Assembly (NCBI GenBank): GCA_963765815.1
Contig: CAVXXT010000005.1
Location: 150,238 to 214,237, forward strand
Direction of reading: 5' to 3'
From: an uncultured Actinomycetota bacterium
Lineage (GTDB): Bacteria > Actinomycetota > Actinomycetes > BP-191
Length of the DNA: 64,000 bases
Shown piece by piece: positions 8,599 to 18,831 of this stretch. Each line of letters opens with the position of its first letter. Position 1 is the stretch's first letter. The notes under the pieces are model-generated. The model did no database searches and was not told the origin of the DNA. It saw only the letters and a list, made by a program, of their open reading frames with translations. Position numbers and translations under genes: made by a program.

Positions 8599-11064
8599 AT
8601 GGCCACCCGTGCGCCCGCCGCCCGTCCCCGCGCGACCTCCTCCCGACCCACGGAGGACGCCCGTCCGGCGCGCGCGGCCGCCCCCCGGCGTACGCCGTCC
8701 ACCGGCGCCAGCCGTCCAGCGGCCCGGCGGCCGGCCGCCAAGAGCACGCCGCCGCCGCCCATGCTGGTCGTCGTCGTCCGGGCTATGGTCCGCGCGATTC
8801 GCGCGCTGTGGTCGATCCTCGCCCGAGCCCTCGGCTCGAGCGCCCGCACCGTCGGCGTGAGCGCCCGTGATCTCGACCCGGCCCACCGCCGCGACGGCGC
8901 CGGCCTTGGCGCGATCGCCGGTGCTCTCGTCACCGCGGTCGCCGTCTGGTGGCACGGCGGCGGCGCGGTCGGCTCGGTCGTCGAAGCGGTCGTCCGCGGT
9001 GCGGTCGGCTCCGCCGCCCCACTCGTCCCGCTGCTGCTCCTCGGCCTGACCTGGCGGTTCCTCCGCAGCCCCGCGGACCCGGAGAGCCGTGGGCGGCTGA
9101 TCGTGGGCTGGGCGTTCCTCGTCGGCGGCGGCCTCGGGCTGGTCCACCTCGCCCACGGCACGCCGGTCCCGCCCGACGGCGCGCGCGCGATGCGCGCCGC
9201 GGGTGGCCTCGTCGGCTTCCTCGCCTCCTCGCCGCTCGAGTCGGCTCTCACCGGCCTGCTTGCCGCGCCGCTCCTCGTGCTCGCCGCCGGCTTCGGCCTG
9301 CTGGTCGTCACCGCCACTCCGATCAACCAGGTCCCGACGCGGCTGGTCGCGCTCCGCGACCGAATCCTGCGTCGTACGCCGCCCGCCCCCGAGGTGATCG
9401 ACCTCACCGACGCCGAGGACGAGACGGCACTGCGCCGTCGCCCCGCCCGCCGCCGGGTCGCGGTCGCGGTCCCGCCGGAGGACGACGAGCCGGCGACCGA
9501 CCCGATGCCCGCGCCGGAGCCCCTGCCGCCCGCGGCGAGCGACCCGGTGCCGGTGCCGCGGATGGTCGAGCAGCTCGCGCTGACCTCCGCCGGCTACGTC
9601 CTGCCGCCGCCCGCGATGCTGCGCGCCGGCACGCCGCCGAAGGCGCGCACCGCCGCCAACGACACCGTGATCGCCGCGCTGTCCAACGTCCTCGACGAGT
9701 TCCAGGTCGACGCCCAGGTCACCGGCTTCACCCGCGGCCCGACCGTCACGCGCTACGAGGTCGAGCTCGGCCCGGCGGTGAAGGTCGCGCGGGTCATGCA
9801 GCTGAGCCACAACATCGCGTACGCCGTGAAGTCGCCGGACGTGCGCATCATCAGCCCGATCCCCGGCAAGAGCGCGATCGGCATCGAGATCCCCAACACC
9901 GACCGGGAGCTGGTGAGCCTCGGCGACGTGCTGCGCTCGAAGAAGGCGGCCGACGACCACCACCCGCTGCTCGTCGGGCTGGGCAAGGACATCGAAGGCG
10001 GGTACGTCGTCGCCAACCTGGCGAAGATGCCGCACATCCTCATCGCCGGCGCGACCGGCGCCGGCAAGAGCACCTGCATCAACACGCTGATCGCCAGCAT
10101 CCTCACGCGCGCAACGCCTGATGACGTGCGCATGCTGCTGGTCGACCCGAAGCGGGTCGAGCTCACCAACTACGCCGGCATCCCGCACCTCATCACGCCG
10201 ATCATCACCAACCCGAAGCGCGCCGCCGAGGCGCTGCAGTGGGTCGTGCGCGAGATGGAGATGCGCTACGAGGACCTTGCCGCTAATGGAGTGCGGCATG
10301 TCGACGACTTCAACCGCATGGTCCGCGCGGGAGCGATCAAGGCGCCGCCCGGCAGCGAGCGCGTCTACACGCCGTACCCCTACATCCTCGTCATCATCGA
10401 CGAGCTCGCCGACCTGATGATGGTCGCCCCGCGCGACGTCGAGGACGCGATCTGCCGGATCACCGCGATGGCCCGCGCCGTCGGCATCCACCTCGTGCTG
10501 GCGACCCAGCGGCCCAGCGTCGACGTCGTGACGGGCCTCATCAAGGCCAACGTCCCGTCGCGCCTCGCGTTCGCGACCGCGTCGCTCACCGACTCGCGCG
10601 TCATCCTCGACGGCCCCGGTGCGGAGAAGCTGGTCGGCCTCGGTGACGCGCTGTTCCTCCCGATGGGCGCCAGCAAGCCGCAGCGGATCCAGGGTGCGTA
10701 CGTCGGCGAGGACGAGATCGCCAAGGTCGTGAAGCACTGCATCAGCCAGGCGCAGCCCGTGTTCCGCGACGACGTGGTCGGCACCGGAGCGTCGCGCCCC
10801 GACGGCGCGGGCGGCGGGATGTCCGACGACCTCGGGGACGACGACGATCTTCTGCAGCAGGCGGTGGAGCTGGTCGTCACGACCCAGTTCGGGTCGACGT
10901 CGATGCTGCAGCGCAAGCTCAAGGTCGGGTTCGCCCGCGCCGGGCGGCTGATGGACCTGATGGAGCAGCGCGGGATCGTCGGCCCGTCGGAGGGCTCGAA
11001 GGCCCGCGACGTCCTGGTCATGCCCGACGAGCTCGAAGGCGTCCTGACAACGCTCCGGGGCTAG
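8599..11064 (+). CDS. ftsK: DNA translocase FtsK
   Basis: 4TM N-terminus, Walker A GATGAGKS, IIDELADLMM, LATQRPSVDV and gamma domain STSMLQRKLKVGFARAGRLMD. Confidence 0.97.
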   Translation: MATRAPAARPRATSSRPTEDARPARAAAPRRTPSTGASRPAARRPAAKSTPPPPMLVVVVRAMVRAIRALWSILARALGSSARTVGVSARDLDPAHRRDGAGLGAIAGALVTAVAVWWHGGGAVGSVVEAVVRGAVGSAAPLVPLLLLGLTWRFLRSPADPESRGRLIVGWAFLVGGGLGLVHLAHGTPVPPDGARAMRAAGGLVGFLASSPLESALTGLLAAPLLVLAAGFGLLVVTATPINQVPTRLVALRDRILRRTPPAPEVIDLTDAEDETALRRRPARRRVAVAVPPEDDEPATDPMPAPEPLPPAASDPVPVPRMVEQLALTSAGYVLPPPAMLRAGTPPKARTAANDTVIAALSNVLDEFQVDAQVTGFTRGPTVTRYEVELGPAVKVARVMQLSHNIAYAVKSPDVRIISPIPGKSAIGIEIPNTDRELVSLGDVLRSKKAADDHHPLLVGLGKDIEGGYVVANLAKMPHILIAGATGAGKSTCINTLIASILTRATPDDVRMLLVDPKRVELTNYAGIPHLITPIITNPKRAAEALQWVVREMEMRYEDLAANGVRHVDDFNRMVRAGAIKAPPGSERVYTPYPYILVIIDELADLMMVAPRDVEDAICRITAMARAVGIHLVLATQRPSVDVVTGLIKANVPSRLAFATASLTDSRVILDGPGAEKLVGLGDALFLPMGASKPQRIQGAYVGEDEIAKVVKHCISQAQPVFRDDVVGTGASRPDGAGGGMSDDLGDDDDLLQQAVELVVTTQFGSTSMLQRKLKVGFARAGRLMDLMEQRGIVGPSEGSKARDVLVMPDELEGVLTTLRG

Positions 11065-11705
11065 CTGAGCAGGCCGGCCCGCATCACGATCGCGACCATC
11101 TCCGACCGGTCGCCGGTGCCGAGGCGCCGACCCGCGCGAGCCAGCAGGCTCTTCACGGTCAGCGGGCTGATCTGGAGCTCCTTGGCGATCTCCTTGTTGC
11201 CGGCGCCGCTCGCGATCAGTCGCAGGATGTCCAGCTCGCGCTTGGTCAGCTCACCCGGCTCCGCCGTCGCGTTGCCGCGAAACCCCTGGGCCAGCAGGGC
11301 CGCGACCGCCCCGTCGGCGTAGATCTCGCCGGACAGGACGGTCCGCAGGCCGACGACGATGGTCTCCGGGGGAGAGGACTTCACCAGGTAGCCGGCCGCG
11401 CCGGCGGTGAACGCCGACCGGACCGTGAACGGGTCGTCGGCGGCGGACAGCACGGCGATCCGCTCCCAGCCCGCGTCGCGGAGCTCGGCGAGCAGCTCGA
11501 GCCCCGGACCGTCGGGGAGCCGCAGGTCCACGACGGCGAGCGCGCGAACGCCGTCCCGGGCGACCGCGCGCGCTTCGGCGATGGTGGTCGCCGTCGCGAC
11601 GTCGGTGATGCCGAGCTCGGCGAGAGCGAGCACGACCGCGCGGCTCATCAGCGGGTGGTCCTCGACCACCAGCGCCGTGGCAGCGTCGGACGCTGGATCT
11701 GACAT
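11061..11705 (-). CDS. NarL/LuxR family response regulator
   Basis: REC domain (VVEDHP, VVDLRLPDGPG, GYLVK) plus LuxR HTH (LTKRELDILRLIASGAGNKEIA...ISPLTVK). Confidence 0.93.
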   Translation of the reverse strand: MSDPASDAATALVVEDHPLMSRAVVLALAELGITDVATATTIAEARAVARDGVRALAVVDLRLPDGPGLELLAELRDAGWERIAVLSAADDPFTVRSAFTAGAAGYLVKSSPPETIVVGLRTVLSGEIYADGAVAALLAQGFRGNATAEPGELTKRELDILRLIASGAGNKEIAKELQISPLTVKSLLARAGRRLGTGDRSEMVAIVMRAGLLS

Positions 11706-11923
11706 GGTCCCCCCGGACTGGGCGTAGGGTGGGCCGGAGCACACCCACCAGCGGGAGTTTACGCCTCTGGTTGAGGGCCGAAAGGTGTCATGCGGCGGAG
11801 TGTCGTTAGGCCGAACAGCGTAGGCCAAAAATACCCGCGTGGGCCTCATGTCAGGCCCGTTCATGGCCGATCATTGCCAACGTGGTGTCCCTCTGCCCAG
11901 CGCCACCCTGCTCAGGAGGATCG

Positions 11924-13438
11924 GTGTCCCACTCCGCTCGGCTCGCGACGCGTCGTCTCGCCGTCGCCGTCGCGCTCGCTCTCTCGGCGTTCGCGCCTGG
12001 GCTGACCTCAGCCCGCGCCGCCGAGACGTCGGTCGCCGTCGTCTCCTTGCAGACCGGCGGCTCCGTCGCCGGAATCCAGGGCGTGCGCGTCCTCCGCAGC
12101 CATCCGGCCGTCGGCATCGTGATCGTCCGCGCCACCGACCGTGGGCTGGCCGCCCTCGCGTCGAGCCCGGCCGTGCACAGCATGAGCCCCGACCTCCCCG
12201 TCACCCTGACCGGCAAGGACTCCGCCGCCGCTGACGGCGTGCTGGCCTCCGCCTCGCTCGGGTCCGGAGCCGGCACCACCTCCGCAGGCAGCGGCGTGAC
12301 GGTCGCGCTCGTCGACACCGGCGTCACCGACACTCCCACCCTCTCGCGCAGCTCCGGCCGCATCGTCGACGGCGTCGACACCTCCGGTGAGAAGAAGTCC
12401 AAGGGTGCCCTCACCGACGGCTTCGGCCACGGCACCGCGATGGCCAACCTCATCGCCGGCGGCTCGTCCGGCTCGGGCTCCGCTGTCGGCGTCGCGCCCG
12501 CCGCGAAGATCCTCAACGTCAAGGTCGCCGGCGCTGACGGCACGACGTCGCTGTCGAAGGTCGTCGCCGGCCTCGACTACGTCGTCTCCTCGCGCGGCGA
12601 GAACTCCACCGACGTGCTCTCGATCTCGCTGGCGACCACGGTCGCCGGCGCCGAGTACCTCGCCACGCCCCTGACCGACGCGGTCGACCGGGTGCGCGAG
12701 GCGGGCATCGTGGTCGTCGCCGCGGTCGGCAACACCGCTGGCTCGGTCGGCGCGCCGGCCTATGACCCGTCCATCATCGCCGTCGGCGCCGCCGACACGA
12801 CCGGCACGGCCCCTGCGGTCGCCGGCTTCAGCGGGTCCGCCGTCGTCGCGGGCGCGCCCCGGCCCGACTTCGTCGCGCCCGGCGTCGGCGTCGTCACCGT
12901 CCTCCCGAAGGACTCGCAGCTCGCCAAGGCCAACAAGTCCGCGCAGCGCAGTGACGGCTTCTGGCGCAGCACCGGCACCAGCCAGGCGACCGCCATCGCG
13001 GCGGGCGCCGCGGCGATCACCGTCCAGCGCTTTCCGTCCGCCGGTGTGCAGGACGTCCGCTTCTCGCTGATGGCCGCCTCCGCGCCGATCGACGGCAACG
13101 CCTCCGGCGCCGGCGTCGTGCGCCTGCCGGCCACGCTGGTCACCGCGGCGCAGTACGCCGACGGCTGGCGTCAGGTCAGCGACGACGGCACGCTCGTCCA
13201 GAACCCGTGGACCTCCTCCTCGTGGAGCTCCTCCTCCTGGTCGTCGTCGAGCTGGTCCTCGTCGTCGTGGAGCTCGTCGTCCTGGTCGTCCTCCTCCTGG
13301 TCGTCGTCGAGCTGGTCCTCGTCGTCGTGGAGCTCGTCGTCCTGGTCGTCCTCGAGCTGGTCCTCGTCGTCCTGGAGCTCGTCGTCCTGGTCGTCCTCGA
13401 GCTGGTCTTCGGGATCCTGGTCGTTCGGCGTCCTCTGA
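11924..13438 (+). CDS. Secreted S8 (subtilisin-like) serine protease with C-terminal (WSSSS)n repeat
   Basis: AGGAGG RBS then GTG; signal peptide ending ARA; triad VALVDTG / GHGTAMA / GTSQA and oxyanion Asn in AAVGN; 14 W-x4 repeats at the C-terminus. Confidence 0.92.
   Translation: MSHSARLATRRLAVAVALALSAFAPGLTSARAAETSVAVVSLQTGGSVAGIQGVRVLRSHPAVGIVIVRATDRGLAALASSPAVHSMSPDLPVTLTGKDSAAADGVLASASLGSGAGTTSAGSGVTVALVDTGVTDTPTLSRSSGRIVDGVDTSGEKKSKGALTDGFGHGTAMANLIAGGSSGSGSAVGVAPAAKILNVKVAGADGTTSLSKVVAGLDYVVSSRGENSTDVLSISLATTVAGAEYLATPLTDAVDRVREAGIVVVAAVGNTAGSVGAPAYDPSIIAVGAADTTGTAPAVAGFSGSAVVAGAPRPDFVAPGVGVVTVLPKDSQLAKANKSAQRSDGFWRSTGTSQATAIAAGAAAITVQRFPSAGVQDVRFSLMAASAPIDGNASGAGVVRLPATLVTAAQYADGWRQVSDDGTLVQNPWTSSSWSSSSWSSSSWSSSSWSSSSWSSSSWSSSSWSSSSWSSSSWSSSSWSSSSWSSSSWSSSSWSSGSWSFGVL
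13208..13417 (+). repeat. In-frame 15-bp tandem repeat (14 units) encoding W-[ST]-S-[SG]-S
   Basis: TGG recurs every 15 bp; Ser codons vary among TCC, TCG, AGC and TCT. Confidence 0.95.
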
Positions 13439-14856
13439 TGGTGGAGCGCCCTCTGCGGCTCCCCGTCCTCATCGGCCTCGTCGCCGGTGGCACGGTCTGC
13501 GCCGCCAAGCTTCTCCCGTGGAACGGGCCGACCTGGTACGCGTTCGCGATCACGGCGTTCGCCGTCCTGCTCAGCGAGTCGCGCGTCGTCAACCTGCCGT
13601 TCGGCGGACAGCGCTGGAGCTTTGCCTGGGCGGAGATCCCGGTCGCCGCTGCGCTGCTCGTCCACCCCGGCAGCTGGATCGCCGCGTCGGTCGCTGTCGG
13701 CGTCCTGACCGCGCAGATGCTGCGTCGGCAGTCCACGGTCAAGCAGGTCTTCAACACCGTCCAGCTCGCGGCGGCGGCCTGCGTCGCCGTAGCGGTGGCT
13801 CAGGCGGTCGGCGGTGAGGTCGGCGTCGCGGCCGGCATGGCCACGTTCTGGACCGCCAACACGACGCTCGTCGCGGCGGCCATCTGGATCACCACTGAGC
13901 GCAAGTTCCTCGGCGTCTGCCTCGACGGCGCACCGCTGTCGGCGCTGCACTCGGCGACCAACGTCTCCCTCGCGATCCTCGGCGTCTGGATCGCGACCCT
14001 CAACCCGACCGGCCTGCTCGCCCTGCTCGCCCCCGCCGGGCTGCTGGCGTGGGCGCTGATCGACCAGATCCAGCGCACCGGCGAGACCCAGCTGCTTGCG
14101 GAGCTGGTCCGGACGCATGAGGCACGGGTCTCCGACACCACCGACGAGGTCGTCGGCGCGCTGCTCGAAGTGGGGTCGCGGCTGCTCCCGAACATCGCCG
14201 TAGAGCTGGTCGTGTTCACCGGCGACGGCCCGCACCTCTACCGCCGACAGAGCCGCGGCGGCATCGCCTGTCACCGCATGCGCGTCGGCGACTTCAGCGA
14301 GACCTGGGCACTGGCCGCGACCAGCGACGACCCGGTCAGCCGTACGACGGGCGACGAGGTCGAGGCGCTGCTGCGCGTCGGCCGGGCCGGCTCCCCGCTC
14401 GGGCTCATCCGGATGGTCACCACGGTCACCGGGGCCACCTTCAACCGCCAGGCGATGCAGGTGCTGCGGATGCTCAGCCGGCACGCCGAGGCGTCGCTGT
14501 CCGTCGACCGCGCGCTGCTCAGCCGCGACGACGCGATCGAGCGCGCCAACCAGGCGAGCGAGACCGTGCGCGCGCTGAGCGACCTCAGCGCCGACACGGG
14601 TCCCGCGCTGCGCACGCTGCGCGACTCCGCCGGCCGGCTCGCGGCGCTCGCGACCAACGCGCCGTCGGACCAGGTCGAGATCACCCGCCTCGTCGAGGAG
14701 CTGTACGCCGTCGAGCGCGCGGTGGCCTCGCTCTGCGGCGCCGTCACCCTGGCGACCGTCCCCGGCATCGAGCCGGACGCCGAGGACGGCGGCGTCGTCC
14801 TCTCCGTCGACCGCACCGAGGCGTGGACGAGCGTCGGGGTCCTGGAGAAGCGCTGA
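13438..14856 (+). CDS. Multi-pass membrane sensor-like protein with cytoplasmic GAF-like and coiled-coil regions
   Basis: ATG overlaps the protease stop (TGATG); about 6-7 hydrophobic segments with SFAWAEIP and KQVFN motifs; soluble C-terminus has no recognisable catalytic motif. Confidence 0.8.
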   Translation: MVERPLRLPVLIGLVAGGTVCAAKLLPWNGPTWYAFAITAFAVLLSESRVVNLPFGGQRWSFAWAEIPVAAALLVHPGSWIAASVAVGVLTAQMLRRQSTVKQVFNTVQLAAAACVAVAVAQAVGGEVGVAAGMATFWTANTTLVAAAIWITTERKFLGVCLDGAPLSALHSATNVSLAILGVWIATLNPTGLLALLAPAGLLAWALIDQIQRTGETQLLAELVRTHEARVSDTTDEVVGALLEVGSRLLPNIAVELVVFTGDGPHLYRRQSRGGIACHRMRVGDFSETWALAATSDDPVSRTTGDEVEALLRVGRAGSPLGLIRMVTTVTGATFNRQAMQVLRMLSRHAEASLSVDRALLSRDDAIERANQASETVRALSDLSADTGPALRTLRDSAGRLAALATNAPSDQVEITRLVEELYAVERAVASLCGAVTLATVPGIEPDAEDGGVVLSVDRTEAWTSVGVLEKR

Positions 14857-15935
14857 TGTCCTTCGGCGGCGGCCGGGCCGTTCTCTGGGTCGGCGGCGGC
14901 ACCTCCGCCTTCGCCCTCGCGACGGTCGGCGTCGGGACTGCGCTGCACGCCCTCGCCGACGGCAACCTCTACGTCGTCGTCGGCGGCACTGCGGGCCTGG
15001 CGGTCGTCGCCGGCTGCGTGGCGTGGCTCTGGCTGCGCAAGCCGATCATGTCGCTGGCGCAGGTGGTGGCTCTCGCGACCGCGTCGAGCTCGGGGGTCAC
15101 GACGGTCAAGCCGCACGCTCTCGGGTCGCGGCTCAGCGCGGTCTCCACCGCCGTCGACACGCTGCTCTGGCGGCTGCAGATGGCCAACCGCGAGGCGGAG
15201 CAGCAGAGCCGGTCGCTGCGCGAGACCACCGCCGGCATGCGCGAGCTGGTCACCGCGCTGGTGCACACCGAGGAGGTCGTGCGCGCCCAGCTCGCCGCTG
15301 ACATCCACGACACCGTCGCTCAGTCGCTGGCCATCGCCAAGCGGCAGGTCAACTCCTCCGACGACGTGCCCCGGTCACTCGCCGACGCCGTCGATGACGC
15401 CGAGGAGCAGGTGCGGGCGGTGATCTCCCGCACCCGCCCGGTCATGCTCGAAGGTGGCGACCTCGCCGCCGCGGTGCACGCGCTCTGCGACGACGTGCAC
15501 AACCGCTACGGCTTGGTCATCCACCTGGTCGGCTGGCCCGACGCCGACCACGCCATGCCGGTCTCGGTCGCGACGGTGTGCTACCGGTTCGTCCAGGAAG
15601 CCATCATGAACGTGACCAAGCACGCCAGCACCGACGAGTGCTTCGTCGCGCTCGGCGTCGAGGGGCGCACGATCACGCTCTCCGTCACCGACCACGGCGG
15701 CGGCTTCGACCCGAGCCTGGTCAAGAGCGCGGGCGGCCGGCACGTCGGCCTGCACCTGCTGTCCGAGCGTGCGCGGCTGATGGGCGGCAGCGTCCAGGTC
15801 TGCTCCGCTCCCGGCGAGAGCACCGTCCTGCGGCTGCGGCTGCCGGTGCCCGAGCGGCGGGTCAACCCCAGCCGTGCGGCAAACGGCCCAGAGGTGCTGG
15901 GCCAGCGGACACGTCCGAGCTCTGCGAACGCATAG
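14856..15935 (+). CDS. Sensor histidine kinase (HisKA_3 + HATPase_c)
   Basis: TGATG coupling; 2 TM segments with almost no extracellular loop; H-box ADIHDTVAQSL, N-box QEAIMNVTKHA, G boxes DHGGGFD and GRHVGL. Confidence 0.92.
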   Translation: MSFGGGRAVLWVGGGTSAFALATVGVGTALHALADGNLYVVVGGTAGLAVVAGCVAWLWLRKPIMSLAQVVALATASSSGVTTVKPHALGSRLSAVSTAVDTLLWRLQMANREAEQQSRSLRETTAGMRELVTALVHTEEVVRAQLAADIHDTVAQSLAIAKRQVNSSDDVPRSLADAVDDAEEQVRAVISRTRPVMLEGGDLAAAVHALCDDVHNRYGLVIHLVGWPDADHAMPVSVATVCYRFVQEAIMNVTKHASTDECFVALGVEGRTITLSVTDHGGGFDPSLVKSAGGRHVGLHLLSERARLMGGSVQVCSAPGESTVLRLRLPVPERRVNPSRAANGPEVLGQRTRPSSANA

Positions 15936-16523: not shown

Positions 16524-16585
16524 ACTCGCATGAGCCGGTGGCCGCGGACTTCCCCCGGCGGCGGCCGACTGGCGGAGGTGTGCGC

Positions 16586-17366
16586 ATGAGTGTCGGCGAG
16601 ACGCTCGTCGCTGCCCGCGAGCAGGCCAGGCTGACCGTCGAGGACGTCAGCCGCGCCACCCGCATCCGCGGCGTCCTGATCCGCGAGATCGAGGCCGATG
16701 GCGTCGAGACCAGCGGCGGCCCGGTCTACGCCCGTGGGCACATCCGGGCGATCGCCACCCACCTCGGCCTCGACCCGCAGCCTCTGCTCGACGAGTTCGA
16801 CCGGCTGCACGGCAGCGACCACGGGCCGGGCGCCCGGCAGATCTTCGAGCGGGAGGTCCTCGCCGAGCCGGCCCGGACCGGCCCGAACTGGACCGCCGCC
16901 ATGGCGGTCGCGGCCGCGGTGCTGCTCGTCATCGCCGTGGTCGCCCTGTTCAACGGTCGCTCCCCGGCCAGCCCGGTCGCCGAGGGCGTGCCGCAGACCG
17001 CCACCTCGACCGAGCCGTCCACCACGCCGGCGACCAGCGCGCCGGCGCTGCAGCTCCACGCCCGGCCCGGACCTCGCGCTCGCGCCCCAGGGCGGGGTCT
17101 TCATCCGGGTGCGGATCCCCGGCGAGCAGCGCAGCTACGTCCTGGTCCGCGAAGGCGGGCCGAAGGGGCCGAAGGTCTTCGAGGGCACGCTGACCACCGG
17201 CGCGGTCAAGGACTTCCGCTCCGACAAGCCGCTCTACCTGGTGCTCGGCAACGCCGGCGCCGTCACCCTGGTCGTCAACGGCCGCGACCTCGGCTCGCCC
17301 GGCGGCACCGGTCAGGTGGTCCGGACGACGTTCGGCCCCGGCGACCCGGCCGGCGCCGCGGGCTGA
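16586..17366 (+). pseudogene. rodZ: RodZ-like HTH-TM-DUF4115 protein, frameshifted as sequenced near 17050
   Basis: The HTH (VGETLVAAREQARLTVEDVSRATRIR, YARGHIR) and TM lie in one frame; the C-terminal [15 protein letters not shown] domain lies in another (ORF 16698..17366); located upstream of rimO. Confidence 0.82.
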
Positions 17367-17388
17367 TCCGCTCCCGTACGCTCGGTCA

Positions 17389-18831
17389 ATGACGTCCCGC
17401 CGCGTGGCCCTCGTGACGTTGGGCTGCGCGCGCAACGAGGTCGACTCCGAGGAGCTCGCCGGGCGGCTGGCCGCCGGCGGCTTCGAGCTGGTCGACGACG
17501 CCGAGGACGCCGACGCGGTCATCGTCAACACCTGCGGGTTCGTCGAGGCGGCGAAGACCGACAGCATCGACACCCTGCTCCAGGCCGCCGCGCTGAATGA
17601 GGACGGCCGGGCGCGCACGGTCGTCGCCGTGGGGTGTCTGGCCGAGCGCTACGGCGAGCAGCTCGCCGCGTCGCTGCCCGAGGCCGACGCGGTGCTCGGC
17701 TTCGACCACTACCCCAACCTCGCGGCCCGCCTCGACGACCTGATCGCCGGGCGGGCGATCCCCTCGCACGCGCCGAAGGACCGCCGGCTGCTGCCGATCG
17801 TCACGGCCCAGCCGGCCGACCCGGCCGACTTCGTCGCCGAGCCCGACACTCCGGTCGGCGGGCCGGCCAGCGGACCCGCACCGGTACGCCGCCGGCTCGG
17901 GTCGGGCCCGGTCGCCGCGCTGAAGCTCGCGTCGGGCTGCGACCGGCGCTGCACGTTCTGCGCGATCCCGTCGTTCCGCGGCTCGTTCGTGTCCCGCCGG
18001 CCGCACGAGCTGATGGCGGAGGCGCGCTGGCTCGCCGAGCAGGGTGTGCGCGAGCTGCACCTGGTGAGCGAGAACTCCACGTCGTACGGCAAGGACCTCG
18101 GCGACATCCGCCTGCTCGAGGCGCTGCTGCCGGAGCTCGCCGCGGTCGAGGGCGTGACACGGGTGCGCCTCGCCTACCTCCAGCCGGCTGAGATGCGGCC
18201 CAGCCTCGTGCAGGCGATGGCGGGTACGCCGGGCGTCGCCGCCTACTTCGACCTCTCGTTCCAGCACTCGTCGCCGACGGTGCTCACGGCGATGCGCCGC
18301 TTCGGCGGCACCGACCGGTTCCTCGAGCTGATCGCGACCATCCGCGCGGTCGCGCCGGATGCGGGCATCCGGTCCAACGTGATCGTCGGGTTCCCGGGCG
18401 AGACGCAGGCCGACTACGACGAGCTCGAGCGGTTCCTGATCGCGGCGCGGCTCGACGCGGTCGGGGTGTTCGGCTACTCCGACGAGGACGGCACCGAGGC
18501 CGCTGCGCTGGAGCCGAAGGTGCCGGCCGACGTCATCGCGTGGCGGGTGGAGCGGCTCAGCACGCTGGTCGACGTCATCACCTCGGAGCGGGCGGAGGAG
18601 CGGGTCGGCGAGCTGCTCGACGTGCTGGTCGAGTCGGTCGACGGCGACGTCGCCAAGGGGCGGGCCGCGCACCAGGCACCCGAGGTCGACGGCTCGGTGA
18701 CCCTGCCGGCCGCCGGACTCGCGGTCGGCGACATGGTGCGCTGCCGGGCGGTCCGGGCCGAGGGAGTGGACCTGGTCGCCGTACCTGTCGGGGTCGCGGA
18801 GTCCGGGCCGGCGCTCGCCGGCGCGCGATGA
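17389..18831 (+). CDS. rimO: Ribosomal protein S12 methylthiotransferase
   Basis: [17 protein letters not shown], radical [11 protein letters not shown] and C-terminal QAPEVDG TRAM domain. Confidence 0.96.

Follow-up and report, generated by a model that had tools for sequence, protein, structure and literature searches.

The element analyzed here is a run of tryptophan (Trp) residues, one in every fifth position, at the C-terminus of a secreted S8 (subtilisin-like) protease encoded in a 64,000-nucleotide (nt) stretch of the genome of an uncultured member of Actinomycetota (hereafter, the window; GenBank contig CAVXXT010000005.1, positions 150,238 to 214,237), and the described systems that come closest to it are of several kinds. 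Pentapeptide repeat proteins, which include Qnr, MfpA and Rfr, consist of tandem five-residue units. Subtilases of the kind with accessory or anchoring regions combine the S8 domain and a propeptide with a non-catalytic C-terminal extension that is thought to place or regulate the enzyme, and mycosins, the S8 proteases of the type VII secretion systems (T7SS), end in a transmembrane (TM) anchor. A passage of PMC2605481 names W_rich_C (PF07483), a Trp-rich family, alongside subtilisins. For MASE9, a membrane-embedded sensor domain, the authors suggest ligand binding within the membrane, and the portion of their preprint available to us does not mention a protease partner (bioRxiv 10.1101/2021.11.05.467447). 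In the tryptophan repeat (WR) of the mammalian transcription factor Nanog, the number of Trp residues at period 5 sets the strength of dimerization, with a sharp loss below eight (excerpts of PMC5446312), and the WR region is described as disordered or prion-like (excerpts of PMC9106587).

The repeat in the window genuinely forms the C-terminal tail of an S8 subtilase, an intact, exported enzyme that consists of a signal peptide, an I9-like propeptide, the catalytic domain and the Trp tail (Table 1; the database gene call starts at position 11924 and yields a shorter product of 504 aa). The protein scores 113.8 bits with Peptidase_S8 (PF00082), for which the cut-off is 21.8, and the catalytic residues D145, H183 and S367 along with the oxyanion residue N284 are invariant in two alignments, A1 with 37 and A2 with 117 sequences. 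In the AlphaFold2 (AF2) model, the propeptide and the catalytic body have predicted local distance difference test (pLDDT) values above 90. The signal peptide, assigned by eye, includes a twin-arginine pair (RR at residues 24-25) and an ARA/AE site near residue 46. The array is in the reading frame of the upstream S8 gene, and the GC fractions at the three codon positions of the gene body (0.69, 0.60 and 0.93, respectively) fit this frame. No LPXTG motif or TM helix was seen in the protease by eye, and the Pfam and NCBIfam scans yielded no anchor family for it.

Translation of positions 13208-13438 gives WTSSS, 12 WSSSS units, WSSGS and a terminal WSFGV followed by L and the TGA stop codon (13436-13438), that is, 15 Trp residues spaced exactly five residues apart in a tail that is ~70% Ser. 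This is the text given in a preliminary description made from the DNA letters, the heading of which, however, counts fourteen exact W-S-S-S-S units; this is an overcount, with 12 exact units and two one-residue variants. The mixture of Ser codons, including those from non-adjacent codon boxes, was reported correctly, with AGC accounting for 8 of the 54 Ser codons in the 14 full units. Numbering the residues after each Trp x1 to x4, the 14 full units use AGC (4), TCG (5), TCC (3) and TCT (1) at x1; TCC (5) and TCG (9) at x2; TCC (3) and TCG (10) at x3; and TCG (3), TCC (7) and AGC (4) at x4. Altogether, nine DNA versions of the full units encode three peptides, and the 12 WSSSS units alone come in seven DNA versions. 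These counts of distinct peptides versus distinct DNA units replace a pN/pS estimate (ratio of non-synonymous to synonymous changes) among the units, which was discarded because TCN-AGY changes between Ser codons are scored as non-synonymous paths, inflating pN.

In the complete 3.36-Mb genome, the pattern (TGG N12)x5 TGG has 23 matches, in three arrays, versus 0 for the reversed control, so that the array is beyond chance expectation. Tandem Repeats Finder (TRF) detects a period of 15 nt in the array, with a 72% match, along with two higher-order repeats (Table 1). In the codon table, units 7-9 are an exact copy of units 3-5, and units 11-13 differ from units 8-10 by a single synonymous base change. 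The 60-nt and 45-nt repeats and these recurrences of unit blocks point to recent growth of the array by duplication of blocks of three to four units. Because of these recent block duplications, the earlier statement that the repeat is not a product of simple slippage is correct only in part. The possibility of an assembly artefact, also raised earlier, is answered in part: contigs from a public sequencing run (X1) match both edges of the array exactly (13095-13245 and 13333-13459), but none spans the whole array, so that the number of units is known from the assembly alone; the sequencing runs containing this DNA are small-share soil runs only, with no RNA run listed among them.

The Trp-every-fifth run characterizes a large family of proteases from Actinomycetota that also includes members in metagenome-assembled genomes (MAGs) labelled Dormibacterota and Limnocylindrales. 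All 120 best protein relatives of the window protease (37-78% identity) end in Trp-x4 arrays, with units that include WSSSS, WSGSS, WSASS, WSANS, WGANS, WAANA, WGAGA, WTATR, WATNK and WYGAK; the unit types of the family also include WAARA and WSGST. A scan of one genome per species yielded 78 loci, in 73 of which the S8 frame reaches the stop codon. Tail statistics were collected for 191 tails, 119 from proteins and 72 from loci, with one locus (L024) dropped as frameshifted. The preliminary description took loss of the tail or of its periodicity in close homologs as evidence against its reading and suggested a comparison of copy numbers; the tail and its periodicity are both retained, with at least four in-register Trp in 189 of the 191 tails (median 9, maximum 29). 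The Trp-Trp gap is 5 in 1979 of 2282 cases and 10 in 73, and a median of four residues follows the last Trp. The other positions of the unit vary among clades, with Ser at x1 in 60%, Ala or Gly at x2 in 82%, Ser or Asn at x3 in 61% and Ser at x4 in 56%. The Trp frequency is 0.9% in the bodies of the homologs versus 10% in the last 130 residues, and the period of 5 is kept down to ~30% identity of the catalytic domain.

The arrays range from 20 to 145 residues across the family, those with just 4-6 Trp being common, and in many of them nearly all units are distinct (12 of 12 in L019, 10 of 11 in L053, 12 of 13 in L068 and 12 of 14 in L071). Tails poor in Ser and Thr (WAANA, WGAGA) have only 3-4 Ser in the last 110 residues (P0068, P0074 and P0078), and six-residue units are present in P0002, a relative with 75% identity to the window protease. 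The unit type is stable within clades and follows the S8 tree; for example, WAARA is found in Actinoplanes, Pseudosporangium and Frankiaceae, and WSGSS in Gaiellaceae. The AGY codons make up 32-47% of Ser codons in the arrays, depending on the position, versus 30% in the S8 bodies, and such near-background usage is the pattern expected of old, peptide-selected arrays. Selection on the tail peptide, as proposed in the preliminary description, is supported mainly by this comparison across homologs, namely, the conserved period, the near-background Ser codons and the clade-stable units, and less by the window array taken alone.

Most carriers are MAGs, the usual labels being Mycobacteriales, Frankiales, Acidimicrobiia, Gaiellales and Nitriliruptor, with a few Dormibacterota or Limnocylindrales; among cultured bacteria, the tail is found in Geodermatophilus, Actinoplanes, Kineosporia, Motilibacter and Pseudosporangium. 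The best S8 matches in genomes of the same family are 42-49% identical to the window protease, and a metagenome scan for a close ortholog retrieved seven loci, the best with 43% identity in a partial match and the full-length ones with 33-35%. In a genome of the same genus (G134:C129:1-1179), the contig stops inside the best-matching S8 gene (49% identity), ahead of the tail. Short-read assemblies may break at such arrays, and the copy numbers in MAGs need to be treated with care.

In the samples taken, the period-5 Trp array occurs only on these proteases. Of 151 genomes sampled from the class, 76 contain an eight-Trp period-5 DNA pattern (70 of 145 if six unpublished genomes are set aside); a few matches were also obtained with the control, so other 15-nt repeats add some noise to these counts. 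All 15 distinct coding arrays found by the pattern alone in seven other genomes are located at the C-termini of S8 open reading frames (ORFs; E-values from 1e-99 to 1e-167), one more listed array, in G051, having been left out because its unit contains a stop codon. This check of exclusivity is not circular because the arrays were chosen by the DNA pattern alone. The same holds for the genome that contains the window, where all three arrays belong to S8 genes: the WSSSS tail itself, ~16 WTGGT units in a paralog on contig C3 and a 6-Trp array in a paralog on contig C8 (Table 1). The last of these shows that very short arrays persist; its units are rich in aromatic residues (WTGHS, WYSSQ, WVGHS, WYTSE and WYGHS). 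The C3 paralog has a 55-aa extension beyond the array (...FLTAFWGNRPPYW...), and a similar motif, FLNAFWGARP, closes the WTGTA-type tail in L100, which comes from a different genome. An additional C-terminal piece past the array may be a feature of this clade. A search with the tail only among longer proteins, in which 27 candidates were scored, returned the window protein itself and P0002 and was uninformative as regards other carrier families.

The tail is genetically coupled to one particular membrane sensor domain. The ATG codon of the gene downstream of the window protease overlaps the protease stop codon (TGATG), and its product is predicted, by eye, to contain ~8 TM segments in residues 1 to ~215, with the N-terminus inside and outer loops of 4-7 residues. 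In a search with a hidden Markov model iterated from the first 240 residues of this partner, 56 of the 66 S8-seeded loci that could be used have a same-strand sensor domain that starts between -30 and +450 nt from the S8 stop codon. As in the window, the stop codon of the protease gene often overlaps the start codon of the sensor gene. The sensor domain also follows all 14 pattern-found arrays with room downstream and all three protease paralogs of the window genome. The distances between the S8 bodies and those between the sensors co-vary, with a Mantel r of 0.68 that was reached by 0 of 999 permutations. The membrane domain is constant whereas the outputs vary, GAF-GGDEF-EAL being the commonest, with PAS/GAF-HisKA-HATPase also present. 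In the clade of the window protease (L001-L014), the partners are 460-490 aa long and have no Pfam output domain; in the window, the cytoplasmic part of the partner has no Pfam family match, and the atlas neighbors of the protein, GAF and HisKA_3 clusters with scores of 0.80-0.84, serve as a lead only.

Some peculiarities of gene calling also touch on the partner. The array leaves two further frames open, one on the plus strand (13207-14856) and one on the minus strand (13171-14484); across the array, the plus-strand frame of the partner gene reads LLVVE-type text and the opposite strand reads DDQDDEL-type text. Because the repeat keeps this frame open, mechanical ORF lists start the partner gene 231 nt too early, within the array, whereas alignments of homologs place its start at 13438. 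In L024 (5704-10050), the protease and the sensor appear as a single 1448-aa frame with a frameshifted tail region; a natural S8-sensor fusion was rejected in this case because the tail is in the shifted frame, probably due to an indel error in a long-read MAG.

In the clade of the window protease, the gene pair belongs to a conserved cassette that consists of a LuxR-type response regulator, the S8 protease, the partner and a histidine kinase. The HisKA_3-type kinase is kept downstream in all 12 loci of the clade with sufficient room, and 12 loci have a homolog of the regulator (E-values from 1e-63 to 1e-67) on the opposite strand; L008 contains a fragment and L011 has no room upstream. The regulator gene is directly upstream of the protease gene and divergent from it in L001, the sole locus with converted coordinates. 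Of the two sensor copies that have no protease upstream (Table 1), one is accompanied by a divergent LuxR-type regulator and the other ends in an EAL-like region (by eye). The flanking genes in the window are core housekeeping genes, so the cassette occupies a conserved chromosomal neighborhood, with no obvious mobile element. There are no Rfam matches across the whole window and hence no riboswitch ahead of the protease gene.

Table 1. Coordinates of the tail, the genes of the cassette, the flanking genes and the paralogs in the same genome (G000); positions are those of the window unless a contig is named.
Feature	Position	Strand	Basis or remark
Secreted subtilase gene, 518 aa	11882..13438	+	ORF, Pfam, AF2
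Peptidase_S8 catalytic domain, residues 136-400	12287..13081	+	Pfam, AF2 pLDDT 91-98
Trp-period-5 tail, residues 443-518	13208..13435	+	codon-by-codon translation, TRF, AF2
Higher-order DNA repeat, period 60 nt	13229-13390	+	TRF, 91% match, 2.7 copies
Higher-order DNA repeat, period 45 nt	13228-13434	+	TRF, 82% match
Partner gene, 472-aa multi-pass membrane protein	13438..14856	+	homolog alignments, Pfam
HisKA_3-type histidine kinase	14823..15935	+	Pfam HATPase_c 3.9e-12, HisKA_3 1.4e-5; overlaps the end of the partner gene
LuxR-type response regulator gene, transcribed away from the protease gene	11061..11864	-	Pfam Response_reg 1.6e-16, GerE 1.6e-14
FtsK/SpoIIIE (alpha, motor and gamma domains)	8599-11064	+	
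HTH_25 (RodZ-like) protein	16538-17392	+	
UPF0004/radical-SAM/TRAM methylthiotransferase	17389-18831	+	
Second S8 paralog, ~16 WTGGT units	G000 contig C3 600770..598806	-	outside the window
Third S8 paralog, 6 Trp at period 5	G000 contig C8 189043..187370	-	outside the window; followed by a sensor domain
Sensor copy without an upstream protease	G000 contig C3 361281-362960	-	outside the window
Sensor copy without an upstream protease	G000 contig C8 423999-426545	+	outside the window

Structure prediction gives no indication of a folded tail. In the AF2 model of the window protease (117-row alignment), residues 450-518 have pLDDT values of 29-43 and no secondary structure, and in that of a Geodermatophilus tzadiensis homolog with mixed units (55-row alignment), the same is the case for residues 484-552 (pLDDT 27-31). 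In the latter protein, the first Trp units are within the confidently modelled body, with pLDDT of 92-95 up to about residue 480. The tail is covered by no Pfam or NCBIfam model, and neither is the gene pair. In particular, the Pentapeptide models PF00805, PF13576 and PF13599 do not match the window protein at E<=0.01; 13 tails compared at E<=10 have no Pentapeptide or W_rich_C match either, with the caveat that HMMER filters may drop very weak matches, and W_rich_C is likewise absent from the match list of the window protein.

We tentatively propose, at somewhat less than even chances, that a disordered tail with Trp stickers holds the exported protease at the membrane, at or near its cognate sensor. 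The tail would be a non-globular sticker-and-spacer chain, with Trp as the sticker and small polar residues as the spacer. Of all amino acids, Trp shows the strongest preference for the membrane interface on the Wimley-White scale. The Nanog WR, in which the number of period-5 Trp sets the strength of association, provides an analogy. After export, the tail would keep the protease on the outer side of the cytoplasmic membrane, next to the cognate sensor or touching it; because the sensor has almost no extracytoplasmic loops, it would be reachable only in the membrane or at its surface. In this way, cyclic di-GMP (c-di-GMP) or two-component signaling would be linked to the state of the protease. 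Under this scenario, array length would rise and fall by duplication of 3-4-unit blocks, with selection maintaining the Trp spacing and the clade-specific unit. If the two proteins cooperate, the pair would represent a common, unstudied route from extracellular proteolysis to c-di-GMP or two-component signaling in soil Actinomycetota. Half of the sampled genomes of the class carry at least one array with at least eight period-5 Trp.

Several observations weigh against this proposal. The sensor topology was drawn by eye rather than computed, and low AF2 confidence is no proof of disorder because a new repeat fold could be missed. Acidic tails (WDANS in P0041 and L021) are hard to reconcile with simple partitioning of the tail into a membrane surface that is itself anionic. 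Nor is coupling to the sensor obligatory: the sensor is 1.8-3.3 kb downstream in 3 of the 66 loci, 7 have no same-strand sensor in the fetched flank (in L042, it is on the other strand), and the window genome has two sensor paralogs without a protease. Furthermore, shared inheritance of adjacent genes alone would produce the co-variation of the S8 and sensor distances, and the unit type tracks the sensor (r of 0.44) no better than it tracks the S8 body (r of 0.42), so there is no specific sign of recognition between the tail and the sensor. A further possibility, which we rate as unlikely, is that the tail is a tethered ligand that docks at or within the membrane bundle of the sensor, with the clade-specific unit conferring specificity on the pair. 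In that case, the three pairs of one genome would be insulated from each other, the c-di-GMP or two-component output would be switched by engagement of the tail or its trimming by the protease itself, and the pair would define a new class of protease-coupled receptor modules across Actinomycetota and neighboring phyla.

The array might instead fold into a β-solenoid with a Trp core, either a quadrilateral Trp pentapeptide helix or a triangular helix, and serve as a rigid stalk or a binding surface. The strict five-residue period, the small residues between the Trp (Ala or Gly at x2) and the degenerate units at both ends of the arrays, which resemble caps, are all compatible with such a fold, and the 45-nt and 60-nt blocks correspond to 15 and 20 residues, that is, one triangular or square coil, although this may be a coincidence. 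However, with Trp as the core, the i-2 position (x3) is often occupied by N, R, K or L rather than by a small inward residue, and P0002 accommodates six-residue units; together with the failure of the Pentapeptide models to match and the AF2 models, which even with alignments of 117 and 55 rows have no strands (pLDDT 27-43, from which the absence of a fold does not follow), these features make a solenoid rather improbable. The β-solenoid or amyloid-like scaffold suggested in the preliminary description has gained no support.

Of comparably low probability is a role of the tail as a cell-wall or glycan anchor, or as an O-glycosylated Ser-rich linker, that would retain the protease in the envelope without any involvement of the sensor. 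Trp is the residue that most commonly stacks against sugars, and Ser/Thr-rich regions of secreted actinobacterial proteins are O-mannosylated. The high Ser content of the window tail fits this explanation, and the protease has no other candidate for a retention element. Yet Ser and Thr are not conserved, given that the WAANA, WGAGA and WAARA tails have only 3-4 Ser in the last 110 residues; glycosylation, and with it the glycosylated tail considered in the preliminary description, therefore cannot be the shared function of the family. General wall anchors are found on many secreted proteins, whereas this array is confined to the sensor-linked protease family (15 of 15 pattern-found arrays and 3 of 3 in the window genome), and it matches no known wall-binding family. 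A C-terminal sorting signal similar to PEP-CTERM is argued against by the length of the arrays.

An arrangement in which a protease and a tandem array share one chain, next to a sensor gene, is reminiscent of tandem pheromone precursors; in Bacillus, Phr pentapeptides are released by subtilisin-type proteases. By analogy, the protease or another enzyme would cut after each Trp, and the resulting pentapeptides would be sensed by the adjacent membrane sensor; the 12 identical units in the window and the clade-specific unit type, as expected of pherotypes, are in line with this idea. In the family at large, however, nearly all units of an array can be distinct while the Trp is kept (as in L019, L053 and L068), which also speaks against the polyprotein of signal peptides proposed earlier, and the arrays go down to 4-6 Trp. 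In the G. tzadiensis homolog, the first Trp units are part of a confidently folded body, no flanking processing motif was seen, and the unit type follows the sensor no more closely than it follows the protease body, so we consider release of pentapeptides very unlikely.

Equally low is the probability we assign to the formation of protease dimers or clusters through association of the tails, in the manner of Nanog and without direct contact with the membrane or the sensor. This explanation draws on the shared Trp-every-fifth pattern and the predicted disorder, and the family median of 9 in-register Trp is to be compared with the threshold of eight below which Nanog dimers weaken sharply (PMC5446312, in excerpts); arrays of 4-6 Trp are common, however, and the tight link to the sensor gene is left without an explanation. 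Finally, neutral expansion of a low-complexity sequence or an artefact of assembly, to which the 45-nt and 60-nt block duplications, the lack of a read or contig spanning the array and the termination of the G134 contig inside the S8 gene could be ascribed, is already largely refuted, and hence extremely improbable, in view of the exact match of both edges in run X1, the Trp period in 189 of 191 homologs, the near-background codon usage and the frame that is open throughout, with a stop codon that overlaps the start of the next gene.

Like pentapeptide repeat proteins, the Trp tail consists of tandem five-residue units with one large hydrophobic residue surrounded by small ones, but the pentapeptide repeats center on Leu or Phe rather than Trp, and the i-2 position of the tail is not small. 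With subtilases that have C-terminal extensions, the window protease shares the S8 domain, the propeptide and the presence of a non-catalytic extension, whereas the strict period-5 Trp array matches none of the catalogued extensions, W_rich_C included. Both mycosins and the window protease are actinobacterial S8 proteases, and the mycosin model TIGR03921 is the best-scoring NCBIfam model, at 126.3 bits versus a cut-off of 278.75, with the Trp array taking the place of the TM anchor; no ESX genes were noticed near the protease, in the course of an analysis that included no search aimed at them. The N-terminal part of the partner resembles MASE-type domains in that it crosses the membrane several times, has very short outer loops and is combined with GGDEF-EAL, GAF or kinase outputs; the window partner scores 23.6 bits with MASE9 (PF20972), against a cut-off of 24.3, and 0 of 58 partner proteins match this family at E<=1e-4.

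Neither the tail nor the gene pair is described in the full-text literature searched, literal repeat strings included, with ~1.7 million PubMed Central (PMC) articles and the subscription-only papers outside the coverage, or in the available parts of PMC7159879 and PMC2605481. Thus, a protease group that is widespread among soil bacteria, with its genes directly before a sensor gene, is apparently undescribed. The closest resemblance is to the Nanog WR, with which the tail shares a simple repeat with Trp in every fifth position, a likeness of pattern only that implies no homology. The WR belongs to a nuclear eukaryotic transcription factor and comprises about ten units, whereas the tail is extracytoplasmic, is attached to a protease and is tied to the gene of a membrane sensor. 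The likeness may lie in a possible mode of working rather than in family membership. In that sense, the tail would be the natural counterpart of the Nanog WR in bacteria, and its family would offer hundreds of variants for the study of association driven by evenly spaced Trp.

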